Positions 1-45,171 of a DNA stretch of 45,171 nucleotides are shown in pieces. Source of the stretch: Escherichia phage TR2. Below the pieces are notes generated by a model. That model was given only the letters and a program-made list of their open reading frames with translations. It searched no databases and was not told the origin of the DNA. The translations under genes were made by a program, and so were the position numbers. Location: sequence record OP251154.1; one strand, given 5' to 3'. The number at the start of each line of letters is the position of its first letter. The stretch's first letter is position 1.

Positions 1-46
1 TTGTGACCTCCTTTGTTGATGTAAGATTATACCATATTACAGACGT

Positions 47-69
47 AAAAAAGCCCTCAAGAAGAGGGC
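47..69 (-). terminator. rho-independent terminator (minus strand)
   Basis: Inverted repeat GCCCTC-aagaa-GAGGGC at 53-69 preceded on plus strand by an A-run, giving a T-run on the minus strand. Confidence 0.45.
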
Positions 70-122
70 GAATTATCGAACAACAACGAGAGAGATGAAA
101 CAACCAGAGAGTAGAACTTCTT

Positions 123-305
123 TTACTTTCGCTCACGAACGTAAGTTACTAGGAATTTGTGGTAATCCGGGTCGGCACCAGACATTACCTTTACTTTCGC
201 TACCGCTTCCTCTGAGGACTCAGCGGTAACCGACGCGATAAATTCTTGCTGACAATTCTTACAGCTTCGACCCATTAAGCGGATTGAAAGCTTAACATCC
301 CACAT
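123..305 (-). CDS. hypothetical protein (60 aa)
   Basis: ORF track only; no recognisable motif. Confidence 0.3.
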   Translation of the reverse strand: MWDVKLSIRLMGRSCKNCQQEFIASVTAESSEEAVAKVKVMSGADPDYHKFLVTYVRERK

Positions 306-321
306 AATGAATCTCCTTTAT

Positions 322-397
322 TGGTGTTCCGCGCTGGACTCGAACCAGCAACTAAGACTTAGGAGGTCTTTGCGTTATCCTGTTACGCCAGCAGAAC
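322..397 (-). tRNA. tRNA-Arg (anticodon CCU, reads AGG)
   Basis: Manual cloverleaf on minus strand: acceptor GTTCTGC/GCGGAAC (one G-U), D-stem GCGT/ACGC with GG in loop, anticodon stem AAGAC/GTCTT, loop CT-CCT-AA, T-arm GCTGG-TTCGAGT-CCAGC, 3' ACCA. Confidence 0.8.
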
Positions 398-596
398 AAA
401 TATTTAAGTAGCGATTGCGCTATTTAAAGATTGCTGGTTACGCCTCCAGCGTCGAGTTTCTCGACCGGTTATTGAGGTTTGCGCCTTATCCTCTTTGGCC
501 AACTTGCCATGTACGCTACTTAATTAGCAATGGACTTTGTGTTGCGCTCCGTGCGCCGTTCTAGCTTGGCTAGCTCGTATGCCTACGAGATAAATA

Positions 597-863
597 CTAA
601 TACTTTCCTGTCAGTGATGCAATCTCTTTTTCATACCTAACGAAATCCAGCGTGCTTTTACAAACCATTAGGTCAACATTTGAGTTAACAATCTTCCCGC
701 AAACTGTACAGATTAGCTTTGTCCTACACCCATCCTGATACGAATCCTCAAACCAACTTATGCGTCGGAATAATCTATATTTATGCTTATGTAGAATTCC
801 GACCTTAAACATTAGTGACTTGATCTTATTCATAAAGGCTATTCCCATTCTCATCGTGGTCAA
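597..863 (-). CDS. hypothetical protein with CxxC motif; start uncertain
   Basis: ORF track; overlaps upstream ORF by 38 nt so the true start may be an internal Met (around 833-848). Confidence 0.35.
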   Translation of the reverse strand: MTTMRMGIAFMNKIKSLMFKVGILHKHKYRLFRRISWFEDSYQDGCRTKLICTVCGKIVNSNVDLMVCKSTLDFVRYEKEIASLTGKY

Positions 864-1062
864 CGCGACCTTTTCTATACCCAGCTATCCACACAAATTT
901 ATCCCTCGCAATTAGCGTAGACACAGGACCCCAAACCTGAGTAATCAGTGCTGCGACAACTTTATCGTCTTTCTTCTTTGCGCCCAACTTTCCGTACTCG
1001 TCGTTCAGCTTGTCAGCCTGGTGCTTAACTGCGTTGAAGTATGCATCTTCTAATCCAAACAT
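826..1062 (-). CDS. hypothetical protein (78 aa)
   Basis: ORF track; lies directly downstream of a promoter cassette with leader CAAACAACGAGAGGG before the ATG. Confidence 0.45.
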   Translation of the reverse strand: MFGLEDAYFNAVKHQADKLNDEYGKLGAKKKDDKVVAALITQVWGPVSTLIARDKFVWIAGYRKGRVDHDENGNSLYE

Positions 1063-1091
1063 TTTCTGCCCTCTCGTTGTTTGATTGGTTG

Positions 1092-1134
1092 ATTATATGG
1101 CATCAATGCCTGTCACGTTTAGCTATTCGTGCTG
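1092..1134 (-). promoter_or_regulatory. operator/-10 promoter cassette (CAGCA-N5-AGCTA operator, 22-nt spacer, TATAAT)
   Basis: Gene-orientation read: CAGCAcgaatAGCTA, 22 nt, TATAAT (plus 1092-1097 attata). Operator doubles as the C-terminal codons STNS-stop of the upstream ORF. Confidence 0.55.
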
Positions 1135-1277
1135 TCTACATCTGGCCCTCTATCAAAAGTTGCTAATACTTCGTCTGTATCGCCATCGCACTCAAACGTG
1201 TCACCGTATTTCTCATTGAAGTAGATTAAATCCTCAACAAATTCATCACATTTCGGGAATAAACATGTGTTAAGCAT
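1119..1277 (-). CDS. small Cys-containing hypothetical protein (52 aa)
   Basis: Manually translated minus ORF MLNTCLFPKCDEF...DSTNS, below the 60-aa track cutoff; ATG overlaps stop of upstream ORF. Confidence 0.4.
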   Translation of the reverse strand: MLNTCLFPKCDEFVEDLIYFNEKYGDTFECDGDTDEVLATFDRGPDVDSTNS

Positions 1278-1428
1278 TTTTCTTATCCTCGCCCTTATTT
1301 AGACCACGCTTTTCCTCACGCTCTTTCCAGATATTCATTAACTCAAAGTACATCATGGCAATCTCGCCAGTCTCAGCATCATCCATCATTCTCTTAGCCC
1401 ACTGGCTTGGTTTTTCGTAGTTATCCAT
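1270..1428 (-). CDS. small hypothetical protein (52 aa)
   Basis: Manually translated minus ORF MDNYEKPSQWAKRMMDD..., packed between neighbours. Confidence 0.4.
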   Translation of the reverse strand: MDNYEKPSQWAKRMMDDAETGEIAMMYFELMNIWKEREEKRGLNKGEDKKNA

Positions 1429-1446
1429 CTAATCGCATGCCTTAAA

Positions 1447-1581
1447 TTATAGTTCGTTAGAATGCGTTTTAGCATCGTCTACGGCTGCCGAAATAATGTA
1501 AATAATCGCGAAGCCCAGAGACCACAACAACCATGGTAAAGCCTCAACTAAAACCTCGTCAATCATAAGTTCCGTGTGCAT
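1447..1581 (-). CDS. small predicted membrane protein (44 aa)
   Basis: Manually translated minus ORF MHTELMIDEVLVEALPWLLWSLGFAIIYIISAAV... with one hydrophobic helix. Confidence 0.4.
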   Translation of the reverse strand: MHTELMIDEVLVEALPWLLWSLGFAIIYIISAAVDDAKTHSNEL

Positions 1582-1591
1582 CTTGTTTTCC

Positions 1592-1771
1592 TTAAATCTT
1601 GTTCAATTGCTCAAGAATTTCGTAAGCCAGTTCTCTAGCTTGCTCTTCTGTTAAGTGGATGGTGTGAACTTGAGGTTCGTCACGCATTCCGCAAGCCTGA
1701 GCAATGATGAATGTTGCGTAGCCGTCGGAGTGGTTAGCCTGAAGTTTTGGTTCTGATTGTCGGAATCTCAT
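1592..1771 (-). CDS. small hypothetical protein (59 aa)
   Basis: Manually translated minus ORF MRFRQSEPKLQANHSDGYATF...; ATGA start/stop overlap with upstream gene (1768-1771). Confidence 0.45.
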   Translation of the reverse strand: MRFRQSEPKLQANHSDGYATFIIAQACGMRDEPQVHTIHLTEEQARELAYEILEQLNKI

Positions 1772-1977
1772 TCTTCAATTACCTCGTATTCGCCTTCTTG
1801 CAAACTAATCTCGTTGCCGATTGTTACTAAATCAGTATCACGAATCGCCTGAACTGATAAGCTACCATCTTTATACTTACCGGAAACATCAACAATATCA
1901 CCAACCTGGAAACCGCAATCAGCAAGGCTAAGTTCGTCACCATCAGCAATGTCAACTTCAATAATCTTTATTCTCAT
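1768..1977 (-). CDS. hypothetical protein (69 aa)
   Basis: ORF track; first gene after a promoter cassette. Confidence 0.5.
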   Translation of the reverse strand: MRIKIIEVDIADGDELSLADCGFQVGDIVDVSGKYKDGSLSVQAIRDTDLVTIGNEISLQEGEYEVIEE

Positions 1978-2008
1978 CTCTATACTCCATCGTGTTGTCG
2001 ATGTGGTA

Positions 2009-2051
2009 ATTATGCCGGATTTCTCCGGCGATTGTTTAGCAATTCGTGCTA
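2009..2051 (-). promoter_or_regulatory. operator/-10 promoter cassette (TAGCA-N5-TGCTA, 22-nt spacer, CATAAT)
   Basis: Plus 2037-2051 TAGCAattcgTGCTA; -10 at plus 2009-2014; leader CATCGACAACACGA then ATG at 1977. Confidence 0.55.
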
Positions 2052-2531
2052 TTGTCCATTCAGGAGTAATTTAGCTTCCCGATAAAACTCCATCGCCGCC
2101 TCAACCTCTTCCTCGCTGTACCGCAAGTGGTATGGTAGTCTACTAGGATGCTTACCTTCGTAGACCTTGAAGTTAGGCTCCCAACACTCATTGAGTATTG
2201 CGGGGTGAACATAAACCTTATCGCCAATTAGACATGTAACATTCATCTTGTCGAGCTCTGGGATTAGCTTGTCCTTGATGAGCAACATCACTCCATTACG
2301 CCCAACAAAAGGCTTAACCTTTCGAGCTCCTTCATATACAGACCTGACACCAACCACTCCTTTCCCGTTAACTCCCATCTTCCTGATGATTTTAATTAGC
2401 ACACCAAGCTCATCACCTGAGTACACATCTGACGTATCAATCGAACCCCAGAATGGCGTTGACTGACGATACCCATTTGCATTTATTACGATTCTGACTG
2501 GCGAAAGTCCATCTTGCCTGGCGATATTCAT
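2049..2531 (-). CDS. internally truncated paralog of the P-loop replication protein at 5132..6715
   Basis: N-terminus (RIVINANGYRQSTPFW) and C-terminal ~70 aa (NGKGVVGVRSVYEGARKVKPF...TCLIGDKVY) match the ends of the 527-aa protein; central Walker-A region absent. Confidence 0.6.
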   Translation of the reverse strand: MNIARQDGLSPVRIVINANGYRQSTPFWGSIDTSDVYSGDELGVLIKIIRKMGVNGKGVVGVRSVYEGARKVKPFVGRNGVMLLIKDKLIPELDKMNVTCLIGDKVYVHPAILNECWEPNFKVYEGKHPSRLPYHLRYSEEEVEAAMEFYREAKLLLNGQ

Positions 2532-2572
2532 TACCTGCTATGCTGTTAGTTTGTCATCGTTAAAGTTAAACA

Positions 2573-3061
2573 TTATTTAATCTCCTCAATAATCAAACGA
2601 TAATCTTTAATTGCTTTCATTGCTGCTGCGAGCGCTTCACCTTCATACTCCGATAGGTCTGGCATGACTTTCGATATCTTAGCCTTGAATTCAGTTATTG
2701 CCTCCACCTTGATTGCGTCATTGGTCTTCTTCCTGATACCAATGTTGGCAGTTCCAGGGATCAGTTTGATAACCAGCCTCTTGCCATCTGATAGCTCTGT
2801 CACGCCGAATTGGCTTTTGCCGCTATCTTCATCATAGTAGTGAGTCGCCTTCATACCTGCGTCTCTCAACTCAGGCATGCGAGCTGTTGTGTTGTAGATG
2901 TATGAGCTCTTAAGCTTCTTAATGGAACCATCTTCACTGCCAATAATGCTTTCAATTTTCCTTAGTGAAACGCTGAATTGCTTATCTTCAGATTTTAGAG
3001 CCTGTTTTACCATCTCGCGAATCACTTGACCCAATGTTGCTTTCTCATTCATGTTTATCAC
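2573..3061 (-). CDS. hypothetical protein (162 aa)
   Basis: ORF track; sigma70-like TTGATT-17-TATGAT upstream on minus strand (around plus 3080-3110). Confidence 0.55.
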   Translation of the reverse strand: MINMNEKATLGQVIREMVKQALKSEDKQFSVSLRKIESIIGSEDGSIKKLKSSYIYNTTARMPELRDAGMKATHYYDEDSGKSQFGVTELSDGKRLVIKLIPGTANIGIRKKTNDAIKVEAITEFKAKISKVMPDLSEYEGEALAAAMKAIKDYRLIIEEIK

Positions 3062-3322
3062 TCCTCTCGTTTAGGTTGAATCCATCATATATCGACTTAC
3101 ACACGTAATCAAGTGTAATTTTTGGTAACTTTTAGGTGTGGTTACGCGAAATGGCATCCTAGCCAAGCTATAGCTAAATGTAGTTTGTGGTAACGCCTGT
3201 AACGCATAAATTGGGTGGGGTTGCCCAATACTGGCTATTTCTTCCATAAAATTGCAGATATGTACTCTGATAGGAAAAAACATATATATAGCAGAAGAGC
3301 ACCAGTTACATGACTTACATAC

Positions 3323-3350
3323 AATAATAATAATAATAATAATAATAATA
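3323..3350. repeat. (AAT)9 microsatellite followed by (AT)7 at 3359-3372
   Basis: Perfect trinucleotide repeat read directly; produces the spurious poly-Ile ORF 3252..3509. Confidence 0.9.
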
Positions 3351-3396
3351 GAAAGAAGATATATATATATATTAAGTACTTATAGTGTAAGTCTAG

Positions 3397-3422
3397 GCGT
3401 AGCTTCGCGTAACTCGCGTAAC
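3397..3422. promoter_or_regulatory. three phased iterons GCGTAGC/GCGTAAC/GCGTAAC
   Basis: Starts at 3397, 3407, 3416 (10- and 9-bp spacing); more GTAACGC/GGTTACG sites at 3126-3210 and 3453-3463. Confidence 0.5.
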
Positions 3423-3542
3423 GATAGTGGTTGGCTTACATCGCGCTACGCCGGTTACGTGTATGCGGCAAAATGGCTCGGCCAGAATAAAAATCAACTT
3501 GTATGGTAGTCCATCCACCATTCATTCACCCTCACATCAATA

Positions 3543-3636
3543 ATTGCAAATTCTGCAACAATCAAAAAAATCATTGCATCAGATGCAATATTGCTATATG
3601 TGCAATAATGAGATGAATCATTGCAATAACTGCAAT
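3543..3636. promoter_or_regulatory. array of three ATTGCA-N5-TGCAAT palindromic operator-like sites
   Basis: Sites at 3543-3559 (ATTGCAaattcTGCAAC), 3573-3589 (ATTGCAtcagaTGCAAT), 3620-3636 (ATTGCAataacTGCAAT); same GCA-N5-TGC core as the promoter operator. Confidence 0.5.
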
Positions 3637-3655
3637 AATACATAAACCCAACGAA

Positions 3656-3699
3656 TAGCACTTTTTGCTAATGACAAACATTGGTAACGAGACCATAAT
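3656..3699 (+). promoter_or_regulatory. operator/-10 promoter cassette for the plus-strand early operon
   Basis: TAGCActtttTGCTA at 3656-3670, 23-nt spacer, CATAAT at 3694-3699, leader CATCAACAACGAGGAGAG, ATG at 3727. Confidence 0.55.
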
Positions 3700-3726
3700 G
3701 AATCCATCAACAACGAGGAGAGAGAT

Positions 3727-3924
3727 ATGAAACTTAAAGACGAAGCGTATGAGCAGCTAAAGCAGGAATGCGCTCTGATTGGGTTGAACGAGATGTACAG
3801 CGATATGGTTTTGCGCGGCAAGATTGATATTGACCTCGCTAAGCAATTCCAGTCAGATGATGAGTATCTATGTTGTGATGGCTTGGGCTGTGACGAATGT
3901 TTACCCTGGCAAGGAATGAGATGA
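3727..3924 (+). CDS. hypothetical protein (65 aa)
   Basis: ORF track; first gene of plus-strand operon. Confidence 0.5.
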   Translation: MKLKDEAYEQLKQECALIGLNEMYSDMVLRGKIDIDLAKQFQSDDEYLCCDGLGCDECLPWQGMR

Positions 3925-4115
3925 TGAAAGTTAAGTGCTTAAATAATCTTAATGATGGAACCTGGGAATTTAGAAACGGAAAGCATTACATTTATGATGA
4001 AATTTATGGTTACGTAGTTGGTGACAACTTCAAACCAGTTTACTGCTACATTGATGATGGACGTGTCATTGCAGCAATTAAAAATAGGCTTATTTTTGAA
4101 ACAGTAGAAGGTTAG
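3921..4115 (+). CDS. hypothetical protein (64 aa)
   Basis: ORF track frame; start moved to ATG 3921 (ATGATGA overlap with upstream stop, AAGGAA SD). Confidence 0.5.
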   Translation: MMKVKCLNNLNDGTWEFRNGKHYIYDEIYGYVVGDNFKPVYCYIDDGRVIAAIKNRLIFETVEG

Positions 4116-4116
4116 C

Positions 4117-4320
4117 ATGAAACTACTTTGCACCAATATCATTAAAGACTTTAACGACGCGTTCAATAAGGGCTCTGAATACAACGCTACCGATTTCAAA
4201 GATGACATGTGCCTTGTTACCGGAGAGCGTCCACATAAGCATCACGACACGTTTCAGGCTCTTAAATGCCTTGATTACGTCGTCATCCCAGGAATCGCAA
4301 CTTTTAAGGTGATTGAATAA
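4117..4320 (+). CDS. hypothetical protein (67 aa)
   Basis: ORF track; tightly packed in operon. Confidence 0.5.
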   Translation: MKLLCTNIIKDFNDAFNKGSEYNATDFKDDMCLVTGERPHKHHDTFQALKCLDYVVIPGIATFKVIE

Positions 4321-5131: not shown

Positions 5132-6715
5132 ATGTTTGATTTCAACGAAGATAAACTATCTGTTGAACAAGTTATGGCGATTGCCGCGACCGACAACCTC
5201 CCACCGCTTCGCGTTGCCATTAATGCAAATGGCTATCGGCAGTCTCAATCATTCTGGAAAACACCTGTGGAGATTGACGCAGGTAATGACAAGTACCCTG
5301 TAATATCTCTAGGCAATGACATTGATGTTGTTGGTAAGCTCTCGGCAAATATTGCTCGCTCAGTTCAGTTCCCAGAGTCATCAGCATACATGCACTTTTT
5401 GGGTTGTGTGTCCGCTGCGATGCTAGGGCGCTTTACTGTTGAGTATCACGGAACCCAGCAGCCAACATCGCTTTACGTGGTAACTAGCCAGCCGCCATCT
5501 ACTGGTAAGTCAGCCATTAACTCTCTGTCAATTGCGCCAATGATTGCTGAGACTGAGCGTTTGAACGAGGTGCGTAAACGTGACCGCAAAAAGATTATGG
5601 CTAAGCTGTCTGCGCTAGCAAAAGAAATGAAACAGGAGAAGTCACCATCTGAGATGGCTTCACTGTTTGAGGAGAAGGAAGATTTAGAGGAAAAGCTCGA
5701 GAAGCTGTGCGATATCGTATTCCCGGTCTCAGATACTACGCCAGAAGGTCTTGCACGAATCAACAACCGCCAGGGTAACTTTGCGGTCATCTCGGATGAG
5801 GCAACAAGCGTCAACTCATTATTGGGCATGACATACGGTGATGGTTCCAAGAAAACGAACAGCGAGCTTGTACTTAAAGCGTGGGATGCTGGTAACGTAT
5901 CTATTGCCCGCGCTAACGCAGAAAACAACATGAGTTTCGTGGCAATGGGGTGCATCTCTGTAATTGCTCAGGATGAAACAATCAATGCGATTATGAATGC
6001 TGGTGCGCGTGGTATTGGTGTTTCCGAGCGTTTCCTTCTGGTGCGTGAAAAGTCATTTCTTGGAGACCGCGTGTTTGTTGATGAGAATGGCGATTCAACA
6101 TACGAGGCTATTGATGATGGTCTTAAAGCAGACTATTTCCGTCTCGTTCATGAAATTATGAATGAAGTTGAAGTGAAACTGACAGTAAGTGCGTCATCCA
6201 TGCGCTACCTTAACCGAGCTCGCCAGGAAATGGAACCGCATCTTGGTGATGGCGGTAAATATTCCCACACGATGTTACGTGGTGCTCTTGGTAAATTTGA
6301 TAAGCAAGCAATCCGTATTGCCTCAGTATTGCACGTTATTCGCAACTGGTTCGCACCGGCAGGGTCGAGTCCGCAGAAATCAAGAGAGATTGAGCTTGAA
6401 ACAATGCAAGAAGCGGTTATGATTTTCCACGAGTTAAGCAAGACTTATTTGTCGTCCGCTAGTGCTGCTGGTCATGCTGGTGATAATGCTGAAATGAATA
6501 AGCTGGTTGATATCCTGATTAAGCAAGGTAAGAATGGGAAGGGTGTTGTTGGCGTTCGCTCACTGTATGAAGCAGCACGCAAAGTTAAACCTTTTGAAGG
6601 ACAGGCTGGCGTAATGACTCGCATCAAGGACCACTTGGTTCCTATGCTTGATGAGAAAAACTATACATGCCTGATTGGTGATAAGATTTACATTAATCCG
6701 CGATTGTTGGGGTGA
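5132..6715 (+). CDS. putative replication initiator/helicase-like P-loop NTPase (527 aa)
   Basis: Walker-A-like TSQPPSTGKSA; has its own promoter cassette; N- and C-terminal segments duplicated in 2049..2531. Confidence 0.6.
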   Translation: MFDFNEDKLSVEQVMAIAATDNLPPLRVAINANGYRQSQSFWKTPVEIDAGNDKYPVISLGNDIDVVGKLSANIARSVQFPESSAYMHFLGCVSAAMLGRFTVEYHGTQQPTSLYVVTSQPPSTGKSAINSLSIAPMIAETERLNEVRKRDRKKIMAKLSALAKEMKQEKSPSEMASLFEEKEDLEEKLEKLCDIVFPVSDTTPEGLARINNRQGNFAVISDEATSVNSLLGMTYGDGSKKTNSELVLKAWDAGNVSIARANAENNMSFVAMGCISVIAQDETINAIMNAGARGIGVSERFLLVREKSFLGDRVFVDENGDSTYEAIDDGLKADYFRLVHEIMNEVEVKLTVSASSMRYLNRARQEMEPHLGDGGKYSHTMLRGALGKFDKQAIRIASVLHVIRNWFAPAGSSPQKSREIELETMQEAVMIFHELSKTYLSSASAAGHAGDNAEMNKLVDILIKQGKNGKGVVGVRSLYEAARKVKPFEGQAGVMTRIKDHLVPMLDEKNYTCLIGDKIYINPRLLG

Positions 6716-8277: not shown

Positions 8278-8451
8278 TTAATCTGCGATAATAAATTCCA
8301 CCAAAGAGCCATCAATCGGCGCAAGGATGTGAGTCATATCGTCGCCATAAATCTTGTAGTAACCGCTACCAAGATGCTCGCCGCTGTATGGCTGATTCTC
8401 AGTAAACGGAAGCGTCTTTGAGTTGTTTTTCACGCAGTATAGTTTAGTCAT
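8278..8451 (-). CDS. small hypothetical protein (57 aa)
   Basis: Manually translated MTKLYCVKNNSKTLPFTENQ...; sits between promoter cassette and terminator. Confidence 0.35.
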   Translation of the reverse strand: MTKLYCVKNNSKTLPFTENQPYSGEHLGSGYYKIYGDDMTHILAPIDGSLVEFIIAD

Positions 8452-10954: not shown

Positions 10955-11206
10955 TCATACAACCTCCTTCAGCCAGTAATCAATTAAATTCGCACTAATT
11001 GCTAATTTCTCGTCCAGGTCAGTCATGCAGAGATTGCCGCACGCTGGCGAGTAATAAATCTGAACCCACTTTCCATCCTTCGTCTTCGCATTAACATCCG
11101 CATAGTCAGGAGGAAACCAATCAGCAATAGGTATCGCCCTAAACTTAGCACCACTACTCCCACTCACCAAATCATAATGCTCAGGCTGAAAATCTAATCC
11201 AAACAT
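10955..11206 (-). CDS. hypothetical protein (83 aa)
   Basis: ORF track. Confidence 0.4.
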   Translation of the reverse strand: MFGLDFQPEHYDLVSGSSGAKFRAIPIADWFPPDYADVNAKTKDGKWVQIYYSPACGNLCMTDLDEKLAISANLIDYWLKEVV

Positions 11207-12492: not shown

Positions 12493-14483
12493 AACAATTC
12501 TCCAAAATTCTTAAAAGCGATTATATCTTTACCTTTGCCGTTTTTTCTATGTGTAACCTGCACTGGTGCGCGGAACTTATCTACGTTCGCCATAATCATT
12601 CTCGCATTGCGAAGTCTGCCAATTCTTGTGGCTTCAGCGCGATTCTCTATATGAGCAAGGCAGAAGTTCTTCCATAGCACGCTGCAAACTCGATGGTCAG
12701 ACTCGGGGTTGAAGAATTCCCATGCATTAAACCGATCTCCGTTATGAGCCATGATATTGTACTTAACAACAATTCCGGTTTGATTCTTACTTAAGCCAAC
12801 TTGAAAATCATAAACAAGAAGGTAATCACCACGACGATACATCTTACCTGTAAGGTTAGCATTGGGGTCTTTAAGCATCTCTCCGCACTCTCGACAGACC
12901 TTCGCTGCTATATCATTGCGAGTCCCGCACCCTTTTTTGATAATAGCCTTTGTCTGCAGGTCTGTAATATCTTCACAAACTGTAAAAGTAAAGAAGTGCT
13001 CACATCTCTTTCCGTCAATCTTATTTCCGCATCTACGAGCAAAAGGCGAATTCTCGTATGAGCAAATTGGGCACACTCGAACCTCTGAATCACCATTGCG
13101 TGATGACTTAAACTTCTCGGCCTGAATCTCTTCAATTATTGGATCAAAGTAAAGTTCAGCCATATCATCAAGTGCGCCAGCAAAGTCCAGGACTAAGTGG
13201 TCATCCTTTTTCATACCAATTTCAATATGTTTCTTCTTGAGAATTCGCATTCCACGACCAAGAAGCTGAATCATTAATGTCAGGCTTCCAATCTTGCGGA
13301 GTATGACACTTGTGTCCCACGGAGGCACCGAAACGCCTGTGGTTAAGCATCCAATCTGAAAAATAATCTTGTACTTTCCGGTCTGGCATTCATCTAGAAT
13401 TTCCCTTCTCTTCTTCTCACCAGTGGAATCAGTGATTATCGCGTAAGGATAACCATCGGGTAGAGCAGCAGCCGCTTCATCGCAGTGCATTTTACCAGCG
13501 CAAGTTACCAGTGCGGCGTTACGTGTTTCAAGTATTTTGATAACGAACCCCATTATCTTTTGTGTCATCGTCTGGTTTTCGTGAATCTTTGCAGCCATTG
13601 CATCCATTTCTTTTTTGCTGAAATCCTTAACGCCATCACTTCCATCAGGTGCAAACTCGCTAAGGTCATAACCCAAATCACCAACCTCACCGTAAACAGT
13701 TGGAACAACGAATCCCAAATCAACCAGGTAACTGGTCGGAACTTGCATTACCGTCTTGCGCCAGAAGCCACGAATATTTGGGTTACTAACTACAATGTGG
13801 TCGTTGTTACGATACGGGCTACCAGTCAAGCCGAATATACGGAGCTCGCGACCATACTTCTCTTTGCAGCGGCGCTTCATTTCAGTGATGATTAGTGTGT
13901 ACTGCGCACGACCAGTTCCAAGCAATCCGGTATTCACTCCATCCTTGAAAACCATTTCGCCTTTCTTGGTGCTCATTTGCTCAAATGTCTCTTCGTTCTC
14001 TTCAGCTTCTACGATATCCATGTGGTCCACCATGTGTGCCTCATCTATTGCGATAACCGCAGGAACATAGTCACCAAGACCCTTAAACAATCCATTGGCA
14101 GCCGTTCCTTCACTAGCCACTATGGTTGGGTAATAAACTGATTTAACGTTAAGGCCAGCGCAATATACGCTATTACGAATGCCAAAGCTGCGAAGTTCTT
14201 CAGCGTTCTGACTGATAATTTCAGACTGGCGAGAAAGTACCATATAAGGAAGGCCAAGTTGCTCCATGCGTTTACCAATCATGGCAATAATGATTGTCTT
14301 GCCAGCCGATACAGACAGGTCTGCGATGAACGGAGCTTCGTACTTAGCAATATTCTTGCCGATTTGGTCGAATGTCACGCACTGGAATGGATACGGCGTA
14401 ATATCTCCAAACTGATAGTCTCTCTGAATCTGCTTAATCTTTTCTTGGTCAAAGTTTGCCACTAAGCGTTCTACTGGAAGCAT
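12489..14483 (-). CDS. SF2 ATP-dependent helicase with Cys-rich zinc-ribbon insert
   Basis: Walker A SVSAGKT, DEAH box IDEAHM, Cys cluster CPICS...CGNK...CRECG. Confidence 0.8.
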   Translation of the reverse strand: MLPVERLVANFDQEKIKQIQRDYQFGDITPYPFQCVTFDQIGKNIAKYEAPFIADLSVSAGKTIIIAMIGKRMEQLGLPYMVLSRQSEIISQNAEELRSFGIRNSVYCAGLNVKSVYYPTIVASEGTAANGLFKGLGDYVPAVIAIDEAHMVDHMDIVEAEENEETFEQMSTKKGEMVFKDGVNTGLLGTGRAQYTLIITEMKRRCKEKYGRELRIFGLTGSPYRNNDHIVVSNPNIRGFWRKTVMQVPTSYLVDLGFVVPTVYGEVGDLGYDLSEFAPDGSDGVKDFSKKEMDAMAAKIHENQTMTQKIMGFVIKILETRNAALVTCAGKMHCDEAAAALPDGYPYAIITDSTGEKKRREILDECQTGKYKIIFQIGCLTTGVSVPPWDTSVILRKIGSLTLMIQLLGRGMRILKKKHIEIGMKKDDHLVLDFAGALDDMAELYFDPIIEEIQAEKFKSSRNGDSEVRVCPICSYENSPFARRCGNKIDGKRCEHFFTFTVCEDITDLQTKAIIKKGCGTRNDIAAKVCRECGEMLKDPNANLTGKMYRRGDYLLVYDFQVGLSKNQTGIVVKYNIMAHNGDRFNAWEFFNPESDHRVCSVLWKNFCLAHIENRAEATRIGRLRNARMIMANVDKFRAPVQVTHRKNGKGKDIIAFKNFGELL

Positions 14484-14579: not shown

Positions 14580-15062
14580 ATGTGTGAAATCGACAAGCGA
14601 ACTATTAACGGCAATAACGGAACCGTGCGCACAAAAGACAAAAAGCAACGCAAACGACCATCAGGCTACTACGTATTGAAAGATGAGGTAAAGGCTGGGC
14701 TACGTGCTCGCCTGGAGATGGTTCTTGATTTCTACGGTACAAAGGCGAACATCGCAAAGCAGTTAAATGTGTCCAACCAAGCTGTATCGGAATGGTTTAA
14801 CCGCGGTATGATTTCGGCTCGAGGGGCTCAGCGAGCACATAATGCGTACAAGCGAAATAAGGAGGGATTTCGAGCTACATTCTGCCGACCAGACCTGCAA
14901 TTCGACGGAAACGGAAAACCGCTAACACTTCGATGCAAGAAGCGCCATATGCTTCGCGTAGTTACCGATGCAGAACTAGCAACAAAGCCACCCTGTCGAC
15001 CATGGCGAAAGAATAAGGCCGCTAACGAGGCAGCGCGAAAAGCTAAAGAGCAAGGGAAATAG
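14580..15062 (+). CDS. putative HTH DNA-binding protein (Cro/YdaS-like)
   Basis: HTH-like segment KANIAKQLNVSNQAVSEWFNRG; basic C-terminal half; first gene of plus operon. Confidence 0.5.
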   Translation: MCEIDKRTINGNNGTVRTKDKKQRKRPSGYYVLKDEVKAGLRARLEMVLDFYGTKANIAKQLNVSNQAVSEWFNRGMISARGAQRAHNAYKRNKEGFRATFCRPDLQFDGNGKPLTLRCKKRHMLRVVTDAELATKPPCRPWRKNKAANEAARKAKEQGK

Positions 15063-36746: not shown

Positions 36747-37113
36747 TCCTCCTCAGAATTGGCCTGTATGCGACTACAGTACCTGTTGGTTTCACTGGTC
36801 TCGGGTCGACTACAGTGTAAGTTTCATCGTCCACAATAATCCTGTAGCCCTGTAAGATTGGGACTTCGGAAGTGAAGATTCCACGCTTATCGCCAAACTG
36901 AATATACTCACCATCAATATCTCTGGTTTTAATCTCCCTCACCAGCCCCTTGATTAATGCAGTGCCGCCAGATACAGGAACCTCGACACCATCGACAATC
37001 TCCACCCCACCTTTACCAGTTTCCATGGTAAACGTACCATCGCCATCACTAAAGATATTGATTCCCGTTCGCATTAATGATTCGATTTGAGAGTAATTCA
37101 TCGGCAACCGCAC
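36730..37113 (-). CDS. putative head closure protein
   Basis: Position and size only. Confidence 0.4.
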   Translation of the reverse strand: MRLPMNYSQIESLMRTGINIFSDGDGTFTMETGKGGVEIVDGVEVPVSGGTALIKGLVREIKTRDIDGEYIQFGDKRGIFTSEVPILQGYRIIVDDETYTVVDPRPVKPTGTVVAYRPILRRIAAYG

Positions 37114-39565: not shown

Positions 39566-40060
39566 TTAAGCCACAGTTGAGTCTGCGGATTGAATCAGCT
39601 GAACTTCAACCAGTGCGCCATCAACGCTTTCACTAGCTGATACATAGCCACCAGCAAATGTGAAACCAGTTCCCCAGGTAGAACGTCCCACTTTAGCGGC
39701 AACAACGCCACTTTCATTTACGAAAACCTTGTCACCAAATGCCGGAGCAGCTGCAAGAGTAGTGCGAACCCAAATACGACCAGAAGTCATTACGTTAACT
39801 GCCTCAAGGCCGCGAGCCTGACCATCTGGAGTCTCATAATGAGATTTAACAACAACGCCGTAAGGTTTAATTGCAGTTCCTGATATAGCCGGAAGGGCAA
39901 CAACCTTGTGACCATCTACTGGCTGAGCGGTGCTAACACCTACGAATGTTCCAACCGGGATTCTAGTGGCAGCAGTACCACCAACCACACAAGCACCATC
40001 GATATTATACAGGGAAGTATCAGCTACCATACCTGCCAGAGCTACAGAACGAATTGCCAT
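39566..40060 (-). CDS. capsid-associated protein (possible decoration protein)
   Basis: 164 aa, Gly/Val/Ala-rich, between protease/scaffold and capsid genes. Confidence 0.4.
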   Translation of the reverse strand: MAIRSVALAGMVADTSLYNIDGACVVGGTAATRIPVGTFVGVSTAQPVDGHKVVALPAISGTAIKPYGVVVKSHYETPDGQARGLEAVNVMTSGRIWVRTTLAAAPAFGDKVFVNESGVVAAKVGRSTWGTGFTFAGGYVSASESVDGALVEVQLIQSADSTVA

Positions 40061-42497: not shown

Positions 42498-44069
42498 TTA
42501 TTTAATTCCTGCTAATCGCATCATTCTCGCTTTAGGGTCTTCTGCGATGTTCAGTACCAGGTTGACAGCCATCGTCAAACAGTCTATCTGGTCATCGTGC
42601 GAGTGAGAATCATCTGCCGTAAATGCTGCAATCTCTGTTAGCAATCCGTTAAGCCAATTTGCTGACTCCGGCAGGATAACGTTGCCAGCCTTAATCTGAG
42701 GAAGTGCACTCATTACGCGAGTCAGCTTGTCGTTATCTGGCACGTATGGCTCGATAGGCGTTCGCATAACCCTTCCTGCTGATTGAATCAGACCTATACC
42801 AGATGCTTTCTTCTCGATGATGATTTTACGAAGGATACCATCTGTCTGATTGGATGCCCTTGCCATCCTCTCGAAGTCTAATAGCTCTGCCTCTAGCTCT
42901 GGCGCCTCCCATTTACCACGTCGCTGGTCTAACAGGTAAATCTTGCCATCCTTATAGCCCCAGAGTTGCAGTACACTAAAGTCACTGTAGCTTTTAGTGG
43001 TCATCGCGGTATCAAGCGTCATGAACCTGTAATCGTACTTAGCTGGCGGTCGCAGGGTGTCACTAATGCGCTGGAGCCAGTCTACGTTAATCAGGTTGCC
43101 ACCTAGAGCTACAGGCTCCTGAGCATATTGACTAAGGAATGTGTAAGGATCAGCATCACGCATGGCTATCAAGTCTTCTATTGATTCCTTTGCTGGGAAG
43201 TAGCTGTAATACTTAACCCCATCGCGCTCTACAAATGGCGAAGAAAGAACGTCATCTATAAACTGCTGCCTAATCCATTCAGGAAGCGTGTCGGCGTATT
43301 CTTCCGTGACTATTGCTGGAATTTTAACTACGTCGAATTTTATCCCCATCTGCCCGGACTCCATGAAGTGACTAGTGTCAAGAACATGAAGCCTTTGCTG
43401 AACGGCTAATATTGGAGTCTCTTTTCCCTTAACTGAACTCGCCCTTCGTGAGCGAATTGTGTTCTTGAGAAGCATATTAACAGCCTCCCTCCTTACATTA
43501 CTAAGCGCATCATCTGGCTTCAGCGGGTCATCAAGCATTATGCATCCACTGTAATCATCGGTCATGTAACCACCACGCGAACCAGTCACCTGTCCAGCCA
43601 TTGCCTTAGATATCGATTCAAACCTCACCTTTCCATCTTCATCTAGAACCTGAATCTCATCATCCCTGCAAGTCCCAAATGAGCAAGGCCAAAGTTCCTG
43701 AAACTCCTTTGACTTAATCAGGTCGCGCACACGCTTTGAGTTACGCTTAACCAATGAGTCAGAGAACGACAAACTAAGATTTCTAACCTTCTTAATCTTG
43801 ATCATGCTATATACAGGGAAATGTATACTAAAGAGCTCGGTTTTGGCTGATCCAGGAGCTACGTTTATGATGGTATCCTTTCTCTTACCATCAAGAATCT
43901 CATCTATGACACGACAAAGGTATTTAGCATGCCAATTCATTTTGAATCTCTCGCCTTGCGTTATCTGAAAGAAGCACCGCAAGAACCCTTCGAAACTATG
44001 CTCAGAGATTGCCTTTATAGCCATCTTTTCAGCGTGAGTCAGTTCATCCCAGACTATTAATTCACTCAT
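42498..44069 (-). CDS. terminase large subunit
   Basis: N-terminal ATPase Walker-A-like NVAPGSAKT and C-terminal nuclease acidic motifs (DQIDCLTMA); followed by portal. Confidence 0.85.
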   Translation of the reverse strand: MSELIVWDELTHAEKMAIKAISEHSFEGFLRCFFQITQGERFKMNWHAKYLCRVIDEILDGKRKDTIINVAPGSAKTELFSIHFPVYSMIKIKKVRNLSLSFSDSLVKRNSKRVRDLIKSKEFQELWPCSFGTCRDDEIQVLDEDGKVRFESISKAMAGQVTGSRGGYMTDDYSGCIMLDDPLKPDDALSNVRREAVNMLLKNTIRSRRASSVKGKETPILAVQQRLHVLDTSHFMESGQMGIKFDVVKIPAIVTEEYADTLPEWIRQQFIDDVLSSPFVERDGVKYYSYFPAKESIEDLIAMRDADPYTFLSQYAQEPVALGGNLINVDWLQRISDTLRPPAKYDYRFMTLDTAMTTKSYSDFSVLQLWGYKDGKIYLLDQRRGKWEAPELEAELLDFERMARASNQTDGILRKIIIEKKASGIGLIQSAGRVMRTPIEPYVPDNDKLTRVMSALPQIKAGNVILPESANWLNGLLTEIAAFTADDSHSHDDQIDCLTMAVNLVLNIAEDPKARMMRLAGIK

Positions 44070-44071
44070 TG

Positions 44072-44578
44072 TTACGCTCTCGTATTTAGGTAGCCTTTAT
44101 TTTCAGAGCCATGATTTTCATGATATCCGTTCAATTTGTCATACTGCGACCTTGCCAATGCAGCCTCCTCTATAGTGTCCTTGTAGCATATGAAGACTGT
44201 TTTACCAAACTCTCTAGCCTGAACAAGCCATCTATTCTCTCTTTTGCACCAGCTTACACCGTTTATTCCGCTTTTATTTCTTGATGATAGTGATCTGTTA
44301 TTTGAGTTCTCTTTATTGCTTACTAACCTTAAGTTCTCTATTCTATTGTCACTTCTATTTTGGTTTATGTGATCTATGTGCATGCCTTTAGGGATTGCTC
44401 CATTGTGCATCTCCCACACCACCCTGTGACACCTGTATGCTTTTTGTCTATACTTTAGTATCACATAGCCAAATTTATCAACTCTTCCGGCCACCTCTCC
44501 AACCTTTGATACATTTGCTACTTTTACCTTTCTTATTAAAAGCCCGTCTCTATATTCAAAAATATCATGCCAATTCAT
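44072..44578 (-). CDS. HNH homing endonuclease with AP2 domain, between small and large terminase genes
   Basis: IDHINQNRSDNRIENLRLV plus AP2-like NKSGINGVSW. Confidence 0.8.
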   Translation of the reverse strand: MNWHDIFEYRDGLLIRKVKVANVSKVGEVAGRVDKFGYVILKYRQKAYRCHRVVWEMHNGAIPKGMHIDHINQNRSDNRIENLRLVSNKENSNNRSLSSRNKSGINGVSWCKRENRWLVQAREFGKTVFICYKDTIEEAALARSQYDKLNGYHENHGSENKGYLNTRA

Positions 44579-44606: not shown

Positions 44607-44649
44607 ATTATCTCATTGATTGGGCCTCTTCTTTTAACAAAAAGTGCTA
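44607..44649 (-). promoter_or_regulatory. operator/-10 promoter cassette
   Basis: Plus 44635-44649 TAACAaaaagTGCTA, 22-nt spacer with GGGCCCA/TGGGCC inverted repeat, GATAAT (plus 44607-44612). Confidence 0.5.
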
Positions 44650-45171
44650 CAGCTTACTAATCACAGACTCCAGCGCTTCCTTCATCGTGCCAACGTCGTT
44701 AGCTGAAGAGTTATTGCTTATAGTAATCTCCTGCGGCTTATCGATGCCAAGTTCTTTGGAAATCATGCCAGGGTTAACAATGCCAGACGCTGCCAGCTGA
44801 TACTTCTGCTCGCGAATCACGGAATCAATGAATGCAATTACCTCGTCATAACCCTCCGACTTCCTCCATTTCTCTATTGCGCTATGGGTAACACCGCAGT
44901 AAAGGCAGAATCCTGTTAGTGTGAAGACTCGTGGCTTGTGCACCAGATTCTCGGTTACGACACCCTGGAAGCTGGCTGTCTCAATTGCCTTGATTGCCTG
45001 GCTCTCAGCCCATGAGAAGTATTTCACGGCCAGGTCGAATAGCTGCTCTGGGGTCATTATTCGGTTTTTGGACAGAGTTGTAATGTCAGAATACTTTTTG
45101 TTGTACATGGCTTTGAAGTTGCCAGAGCGAATCTTTTCTTGCGCCTGGCTGGTGAAGTTTTCGTCTTTCAT
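44647..45171 (-). CDS. putative terminase small subunit
   Basis: 174-aa ORF directly upstream of HNH and large terminase; start codon sits at the window edge (45169-45171). Confidence 0.5.
   Translation of the reverse strand: MKDENFTSQAQEKIRSGNFKAMYNKKYSDITTLSKNRIMTPEQLFDLAVKYFSWAESQAIKAIETASFQGVVTENLVHKPRVFTLTGFCLYCGVTHSAIEKWRKSEGYDEVIAFIDSVIREQKYQLAASGIVNPGMISKELGIDKPQEITISNNSSANDVGTMKEALESVISKL

Follow-up and report, generated by a model that had tools for sequence, protein, structure and literature searches.

The window, by which we mean the whole 45,171-nucleotide stretch of DNA analyzed here, is a complete Rtp/T1-like coliphage genome (Drexlerviridae, Braunvirinae). The terS gene stops exactly at the window edge (45171), and thus the window represents the whole genome opened at terS. 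Positions 3000 to 4200 share 100% identity with Escherichia phage TR3 (Drexlerviridae, Braunvirinae) and also have relatives in Rtp, DTL, T1, and some 130 further records. This part of the genome includes a 665-bp intergenic region between two divergent operons. The leftward operon (start 3061) heads toward terS and the structural genes, and the rightward early operon (start 3727) heads toward the gene for a DUF3987 helicase. An array of four 17-bp palindromes, which we call P1 to P4, lies inside this intergenic region together with a promoter and several other features (Table 1).

Other parts of the intergenic region and the genome bear on how the array might be used. The terminase subunits are of the type associated with pac sites and headful packaging: TerS is a member of the P22 gp3 family, and Terminase_6C is found in TerL. 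Between terS and terL (44072-44578, minus strand) lies a gene for an HNH_3 endonuclease that has a weak AP2-like domain, as is also the case in Rtp, unlike T1. This protein is probably a homing endonuclease, and its presence shows no correlation with that of the palindromes. On the far side of the array from the early operon, an AT-rich stretch is flanked by GTAACGC/GCGTAAC repeats (3140-3148, 3189-3205, 3407-3423, and 3453-3461), and the T1 AT-rich core is surrounded by ATTACGC and by three GATTAACAC repeats. The stretch in the window is possibly a DNA-unwinding element or a replication origin region. No CRP, DnaA, or IHF boxes were found in positions 3060-3730. GATC is rare in the whole window (53 sites versus about 176 expected from its length) and is absent from the 3060-3730 intergenic region.

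Table 1. Positions of the palindrome array, its neighboring elements, and the proteins considered as binders (window coordinates)
Feature	Position	Strand	Sequence	Description
AT-rich stretch	3250-3375	none		GC 0.22-0.24; (AAT)9 at 3323-3349, (TA)7 at 3360-3373
Terminus zone	3468-3527	-		Genome termini or record ends of relatives; inferred first pac cut
Box beside P1	3523-3542	-	TATTGATGTGAGGGTG (minus strand)	Counterpart of GATTGTGAG(A/G)GGG
Whole array	3543-3636	none		Two tandem 47-bp units, 3543-3589 and 3590-3636
P1	3543-3559	none	ATTGCAAATTCTGCAAC	ATTGCA-AATTC-TGCAAC; imperfect, right arm TGCAAC
P1-P2 linker	3560-3572	none	AATCAAAAAAATC	13 bp, A-tract; direct repeat of the linker at 3607-3619
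P2	3573-3589	none	ATTGCATCAGATGCAAT	ATTGCA-TCAGA-TGCAAT; perfect
P3	3590-3606	none	ATTGCTATATGTGCAAT	ATTGCT-ATATG-TGCAAT; one mismatch, abuts P2
P3-P4 linker	3607-3619	none	AATGAGATGAATC	13 bp
P4	3620-3636	none	ATTGCAATAACTGCAAT	ATTGCA-ATAAC-TGCAAT; perfect; center at about -78 from the predicted transcription start
P4-DR linker	3637-3655	none		19 bp, conserved; majority frequency 0.93
DR element core	3656-3670	+	TAGCACTTTTTGCTA	One of 18 copies in the window
Sigma-70-like promoter	3671-3699	+		ATGACA at 3671-3676, 17-bp spacer, CATAAT at 3694-3699; predicted to drive the 3727 operon
First gene of the rightward early operon	3727-3924	+		65 aa, phrog_9053, no HTH detected
gp23-like regulator (T1)	14580-15062	+		Cro-type HTH; candidate reader of DR and/or palindromes
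TerS	44647-45171	-		Pfam GP3_package (P22 gp3 family), E 1.7e-12; candidate pac-region reader

A first-pass annotation of this DNA had described three tandem ATTGCA-N5-TGCAAT palindromes, corresponding to P1, P2, and P4, with centers about 30 and 47 bp apart. These positions and distances are correct, but a fourth palindrome (P3) had been overlooked, and the given form holds without a mismatch only for P2 and P4 among the three. The four centers are at 3551, 3581, 3598, and 3628. Because P3 abuts P2, the spacing is 30/17/30 bp, and the array therefore consists of two tandem 47-bp units. Each unit is composed of a palindrome, a 13-bp linker, and a second palindrome, and the linkers of the two units are direct repeats (AATcAaAaaAATC and AATgAgAtgAATC). 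The half-sites of each 17-bp dyad sit one helical turn (11 bp) apart, and the arms of P2 reach 7 bp (ATTGCAT/ATGCAAT).

The palindromes are real and non-random, and chance is ruled out as their source. All three exact copies of TTGCA-N5-TGCAA in the 45 kb are inside the array. When up to one mismatch is allowed, the window holds 15 matches compared to 3.6 +/- 2.0 expected, a number reached in 0 of 100 shuffles, and four of these 15 fall within 93 bp. We also considered whether the array region, which is located upstream of the predicted promoter, might form a structured RNA. The best Rfam match (E 0.21) is below the gathering score, and the predicted fold is not unusually stable (z-score -1.9).

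The promoter cassette proposed in the first-pass annotation (3656-3699) is confirmed in all its parts, from the DR core through the -35 and -10 hexamers to the ribosome binding site and the ATG at 3727. The element that had been called a promoter operator is likewise real, but it is the known 21-nt direct repeat (DR) of the T1 family. This repeat (aaATAGCACnnnTTGnTAAAA) has been reported for TLS and T1, with proposed roles as a stoperator, an enhancer, or an UP-element (PMC11447400). The window has 18 copies of the arrangement TAGCAC-N3-TTGCTA with AAGACA-like -35 and -10 hexamers after it, always in the orientation of transcription, and the DR copies abut a -35 hexamer. The DR and the dyads share the GCA-N5-TGC geometry that had been pointed out previously (TAGCA-N5-TGCTA versus TTGCA-N5-TGCAA). 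However, the DR is directional, genome-wide, and present in all lineages examined, whereas the TTGCA dyads are symmetric, are confined to one locus in the window, and are absent from the TLS-type, F-type, and G-type lineages. Furthermore, the dyads do not overlap the promoter. Their centers are at about -78, -108, -125, and -155, and P4 ends at 3636, while the -35 hexamer starts at 3671.

T1 carries a second DR (positions 104-118) just to the right of its palindromes and pointing at them. At the usual distance from this copy there is no recognizable -10 hexamer, an indication that the DR can serve as a protein-binding site independent of a promoter.

Conservation of the module extends well beyond close relatives. 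Across the entire module, no indel interrupts the alignment of 19 distinct relatives (Braunvirinae, Rogunavirinae, and Nouzillyvirus), and the spacing of the dyads is thus invariant. Majority-base frequencies among these relatives are 0.85-0.99 for the eight half-sites, 0.69-0.88 for the four 5-bp spacers, 0.82-0.93 for the linkers (0.86 for the linker between P1 and P2), and 0.99 for the DR element. P1 is the most degenerate of the dyads, with a core of TTGC-N7-GCAA. Half-sites that are better conserved than the spacers between them are a signature of protein-binding dyads. Judged by this pattern, the palindromes look like sequence-specific protein-binding sites within a larger constrained module. 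In more distant genera, only window positions 3522-3675 (box, palindromes, and DR) are retained at ~85% identity, and both flanks diverge.

We then surveyed the family using 57 IMG/VR loci that were anchored on TerS and that are partial loci. A common frame is evident in these loci, consisting of the DR, lineage-specific repeats, a GATTGTGAG/G-rich or GATT-repeat box, and an AT-rich region. The box, in its GATTGTG/G-rich or GATT-repeat form, is present in all Drexlerviridae lineages examined, including those that are free of these palindromes. Pairs of TTGCA dyads 30-31 bp apart fill the variable slot, with two pairs in the lineage of this phage and one pair in T1-like phages. Distant lineages (L070 and L081-84, whose TerS proteins are 44-49% identical) also carry a TTGCA dyad pair at the same slot. 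In place of the TTGCA dyads, TLS-like phages have two copies of AGACCGATTGGTCT and GATC-containing repeats, F-type phages have ATTATTCC/GGAATAAT, and G-type phages have five copies of GTAATC.

Several details of these slots are worth recording. No TTGCA dyads are present in the last 135 bp and first 60 bp of TLS, or in the TLS-type loci L077 and L078. The TLS-type order, beginning near the DR, is two abutting AGACCGATTGGTCT palindromes, three (C/T)GATCA(C/G) repeats, and phased GATT(T/G) at the mapped pac. The arrangement recalls P1 pac with its Dam-sensitive hexamer repeats. Inverted repeats of the form ATTATTCC(A)...GGAATAAT were noted in T1 (about -75 to -30 of the record junction) and in L053, L059, and L072. 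In T1-like phages they lie between the DR and the TTGCA dyads, and they are the sole repeat family of the F-type lineage. In addition to its intergenic pair, L084 carries a second perfect dyad pair (GTTGCAGCATTTGCAAT and ATTGCACTAAATGCAAT, 31 bp apart, positions 14041-14089) in a MuF-like head-morphogenesis gene ~4 kb downstream of terS. This second pair is also found in L081 and L082 and is missing from the related L083.

We also looked for the module outside of these phages. No satellite or prophage copies were found in 5,426 E. coli genomes. When 185k bacterial genomes were searched for two perfect dyads separated by 14-17 bp, at least 120 matches turned up. These are scattered, and most belong to unrelated metagenome-assembled genomes or to repeat families. 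Among those listed, a single match is from Enterobacterales (Serratia), and it looks like coding sequence. The palindrome sequences were not found in the published literature searched, a search that did not extend to the Rtp and T1 genome papers.

The array lies next to the mapped ends of related genomes. Headful packaging is documented for T1, TLS, SU57, and the Rtp-like phage MSK. The MSK terminus was assigned by PhageTerm to position 36,862 in the forward direction (MSK paper), which maps 38 bp beyond the P1 homolog, or to window position ~3506. The SU57 authors describe a PhageTerm-supported end in this UTR and place T1 pac in the corresponding region, and the SU57 pac is given as “not identified” in the SU57 paper. 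The record of SU57 ends at window ~3489, and other record ends map to 3515 (Rao1), ~3471 (CEB_EC3a), and ~3468 (ZL19). An equivalent end at ~3526 for L051-type phages was inferred from T1 coordinates rather than from an alignment, and the starts of the L051, L058, and L085 records lie shortly after the G-rich box next to the last palindrome. The distance from the last dyad or box out to these seven record ends is 10-75 bp. Several record starts follow the T1 convention and are not independent measurements. The Rtp record junction falls inside the P3 homolog. In TLS, pac has been restriction-mapped to the same intergenic region, and its sequence was assigned by a 6-bp resemblance to P22 pac within the restriction-mapped fragment (PMC11447400).

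The T1 record (NC_005833), with an annotated terminal repeat_region at 1..2800 (a 2.8-kb terminal repeat), starts with GTTGCATGGTGTGCAAC-13 bp-GTTGCTTAGAATGCAAT, which is exactly one 47-bp unit (positions 1-47). In T1, the distance from the dyads to the DR is ~90-130 bp, compared with just 10 bp to the box and the record start. Because the termini of relatives cluster 16-75 bp to the left of P1, the array abuts the packaging start, as mapped to this locus through those relatives.

Older genetic work on T1 is relevant to this location. Liebeschuetz and Ritchie reportedly found in 1986 that a cloned T1 pac fragment directed packaging or raised plasmid transduction, and Drexler is said to have observed in 1984 that T1 can begin packaging between the lambda genes P and Q. 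We found no TTGCA-N5-TGCAA in the lambda P-Q interval with up to one mismatch. The best short matches between the T1 pac region and lambda positions 39.5-44.6 kb fall on T1 palindrome A. They are TTGTTGCATGGTG, a 13-mer in gene P (39898-39910), and AATGCGTGGTGTGCAAC in ninG (42838-42854, 14/17). Matching 13-mers appear in 3% of shuffles and 11-mers are common, and these matches are not significant alone. We consider them a lead, not evidence, for the classical “esp-lambda” T1 packaging start, for which they are candidate sites.

Which protein might read the dyads was addressed by examining candidates encoded by the phage. The first-pass annotation had raised the possibility of a paralog of the protein that recognizes the promoter element. 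This idea is not borne out: the ORFs screened include a single detected HTH protein, the gp23-like regulator, for which the genome holds no paralog, and Pfam and PHROGs searches revealed no HTH gene in the flanking operons among those ORFs (some short ORFs were left out of the screen). The gp23-like regulator does not co-vary with the palindromes: its recognition helix differs among the phages that bear them and fails to set these lineages apart from those that lack them. TerS does not track the palindromes either, and its clades do not split these lineages. For example, in an alignment judged by eye, the TerS of L081-84 (palindromes present) looks nearer to that of L063/66/73 (palindromes absent) than to that of this phage. 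Nor does the DUF3987 helicase track the palindromes; its C-terminal domain resembles that of TLS, which lacks palindromes, and not that of T1, which has them.

Checking every window ORF for its presence or absence in T1, Rtp, and TLS also yielded no protein that tracks the palindromes. Two small, non-overlapping, uncharacterized proteins (8278-8451 and 10955-11206) are shared with T1 and Rtp and have no TLS match, and four other ORFs with this distribution look like spurious overlapping frames.

The second gene of the leftward early operon (2049-2531, minus strand) encodes a 160-aa “mini” paralog of the DUF3987 helicase (5132-6715, plus strand). Residues 1-55 match helicase residues 15-73 (46% identity), and residues 37-113 match the helicase C-terminal domain (residues 448-526; 61% identity, E 2e-29). 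Only these terminal regions of the helicase are matched, and thus the paralog carries the terminal domains without the ATPase core. T1, TLS, and Rtp have no separate copy of this protein. The small protein might regulate the DNA- or partner-binding function of the helicase or compete with it.

The placement of the array between the early promoter and a T1-like first cut points to the pac region rather than to a simple promoter operator. Our preferred interpretation, which we hold tentatively and to which we assign somewhat less than an even chance, is that the dyads are the binding sites of a dimeric or oligomeric protein and form the recognition or architectural half of the pac region. We infer the binding, the membership of the bound protein in the packaging machinery, and the following order of events. 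Late in infection, a protein would assemble on the two tandem 47-bp units, with the small terminase (P22 gp3 family) as the first candidate and an accessory factor as the second. The A-tract linker and the adjoining GATTGTGAG-type box may help shape the DNA. The first cut, by TerL, would follow at window ~3468-3527, which is 16-75 bp leftward of P1. From there, headful packaging would run leftward to lower coordinates, toward the terminase and structural genes, and the palindromes and the early promoter would stay on the unpackaged side of the first cut.

This pac interpretation is supported by the recurrence of a TTGCA pair, 30-31 bp apart, in the corresponding position of T1-like loci and of one very distant lineage (TerS 44-48% identical). 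Other observations count against it. The TerS phylogeny does not track the palindromes, and the TLS-, F-, and G-type lineages hold other repeats at the array position. The record starts set by convention, and the lambda P-Q interval with no TTGCA-N5-TGCAA site, also weigh against it. Because the GATTGTGAG/GATT-repeat box is present in every lineage examined, it is a more parsimonious target than the dyads for a conserved TerS. We know of no P22-family small terminase that reads dyad-symmetric sites. Moreover, the co-conservation of the dyads with the promoter element would fit a regulatory role equally well.

A regulatory role is the main rival, possible in our judgment but unlikely. According to this alternative, cooperative binding of a phage-encoded HTH dimer to the four dyads controls the early promoter, whether by upstream repression, looping, or activation. 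Either the Cro-type gp23-like regulator or a small protein that escaped detection would be responsible. The dyads have the size expected for an HTH dimer, with conserved half-sites and variable spacers, and a 17-bp length with an 11-bp distance between half-sites is the classic layout of HTH-dimer operators such as those of lambda, 434, and P22. The genome does encode a Cro-like HTH protein, and the half-sites of the dyads and the DR differ at one base (TAGCA versus TTGCA), so a protein that reads the DR might also bind the dyads. The palindromes and the DR promoter are also conserved as one block that includes the 19-bp linker. In addition, other lineages place different lineage-specific dyads beside the same DR, as in TLS, where two copies of AGACCGATTGGTCT are located 8 bp from it. 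This pattern looks like the co-evolution of a regulator with its operators.

The multi-operator switch envisioned by the first-pass annotation thus has some merit in that the dyads look protein-binding, but the dyads and the promoter hexamers do not overlap or abut, and the locus coincides with the mapped pac. Dyads are present at only one of the 18 DR promoters, and in T1 they are far closer to the box and record start than to the DR. Neither flanking operon provides a cognate HTH regulator among the ORFs screened, and gp23, without a paralog, has a recognition helix that does not follow the distribution of the palindromes. The second perfect pair inside a head-morphogenesis gene of a distant lineage is also difficult to reconcile with the control of an early promoter.

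Roles in packaging and in transcription are not mutually exclusive. Occupancy of the dyads by a late packaging protein or by a host factor (e.g., CytR) might silence or redirect the early promoter and also nucleate the terminase cut. We regard such a dual-purpose switch as improbable. If true, it would mean that small terminases of the P22 gp3 type have a new class of pac recognition, based on dyads, and the T1 pac sequence would be identified at last.

We judge it very unlikely that the array is instead part of a replication origin. In that case, an initiator such as the DUF3987 helicase encoded 1.5 kb downstream would use the eight TTGCA half-sites in the manner of iterons, together with the (AAT)9/(TA)7 region 170-290 bp leftward. 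P4 alpha-type initiators bind short repeats in both orientations, and the tandem 47-bp units, the A-tract, and the nearby stretch of 22-24% GC flanked by GTAACGC repeats would suit such a role. The helicase also has an unannotated C-terminal domain that recurs in the stand-alone 160-aa paralog. However, this domain is like that of palindrome-free TLS rather than its T1 counterpart, and searches for DnaA and IHF sites found none. The terminus zone also lies between the AT-rich region and the array, which are >170 bp apart. No origin has been mapped in this family, and none was found in TLS (PMC11447400).

We give scarcely any weight to a host factor as the reader of the dyads, the most specific candidate being E. 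coli CytR. The CytR half-site is (G)TTGCA(TT), and the protein accepts TGCAA-N2-3-TTGCA and AYGTGCAAC-N10-13-GTTRCATT (PMC3454398). These rules fit the half-sites of the array (TTGCA/TGCAA), the N2 gap at the P2/P3 junction (TGCAA-TA-TTGCT), and the 13-bp gaps of P1/P2, P3/P4, and T1 PalA/PalB. A host reader would also more easily explain why the palindromes are patchy relative to every phage protein tree tested. However, the match is limited to a 5-6-bp core (the pentamer being the only part in common), and octamer positions 7-8 are not conserved. The unit strictly conserved in every lineage is TTGCA-N5-TGCAA, whose polarity is opposite to that of CytR operators. Natural CytR operators depend on CRP (PMC3454398), but positions 3400-3730 hold no CRP-like site even with up to three mismatches, and so lack the CRP sites ~52-53 bp apart of a CytR/CRP operator. 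Finally, no matching module was found among the 5,426 E. coli genomes.

The pac interpretation, were it to hold, would address an old problem. T1 is a classic pac-type generalized transducer and a notorious contaminant of laboratories and fermenters. Its pac site was cloned decades ago. A conserved dyad module with fixed spacing that abuts mapped termini offers a concrete, mutable candidate for a recognition or assembly element, and the array makes both the long-undefined T1-family pac and the early-control region directly testable. Defining the pac element would permit hundreds of Drexlerviridae genomes to be opened and annotated correctly and would aid the engineering of T1-like vectors or transduction-defective therapeutic phages. 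Whether small terminases of the P22 family are able to recognize dyad repeats could then be tested as well. Should the sites turn out to be operators instead, early transcription in this family would have its first defined regulator sites.

As far as can be judged from its sequence, the array is a familiar kind of feature, namely a set of repeated dyads that bind protein. It resembles the lambda operators OR1-3 and OL1-3, read by cI and Cro, in having multiple adjacent 17-bp dyads by an early promoter, in its divergent control region, and in half-sites that are better conserved than spacers. Unlike these operators, the array is off the promoter and has no adjacent repressor gene, and the phage is virulent. 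The 30/17/30 bp spacing also puts neighboring dyads on different helix faces.

Among packaging sites, pac of the P22/Sf6 type is a single asymmetric site of ~22 bp inside the small-terminase gene. The phage studied here is like P22 and Sf6 in its GP3_package TerS family, its headful mechanism, and first cuts that are imprecise over tens of base pairs. It differs in that the site is in a divergent intergenic region 3.5 kb from terS (8.4 kb in T1), and the array is dyad-symmetric, repeated, and without sequence similarity to GAAGATTTATCTGAAGTCGTTA. Multipartite terminase recognition sites are known from lambda cosB (R3-R2-R1 plus IHF), the SPP1 pacL/pacR boxes, and the hexamer repeats of P1 pac. 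Compared to these sites, the array has 17-bp dyads in two tandem 47-bp units and no IHF site or GATC. The TerS of this phage is of the P22 gp3 family, with a phylogeny that does not track the dyads, and terminase binding is only putative. Like cosB, pacL/pacR, and P1 pac, however, the array combines short repeated elements, fixed spacing, and bent or A-tract DNA, and it would be located tens of base pairs from the first cut made by a TerS/TerL enzyme.
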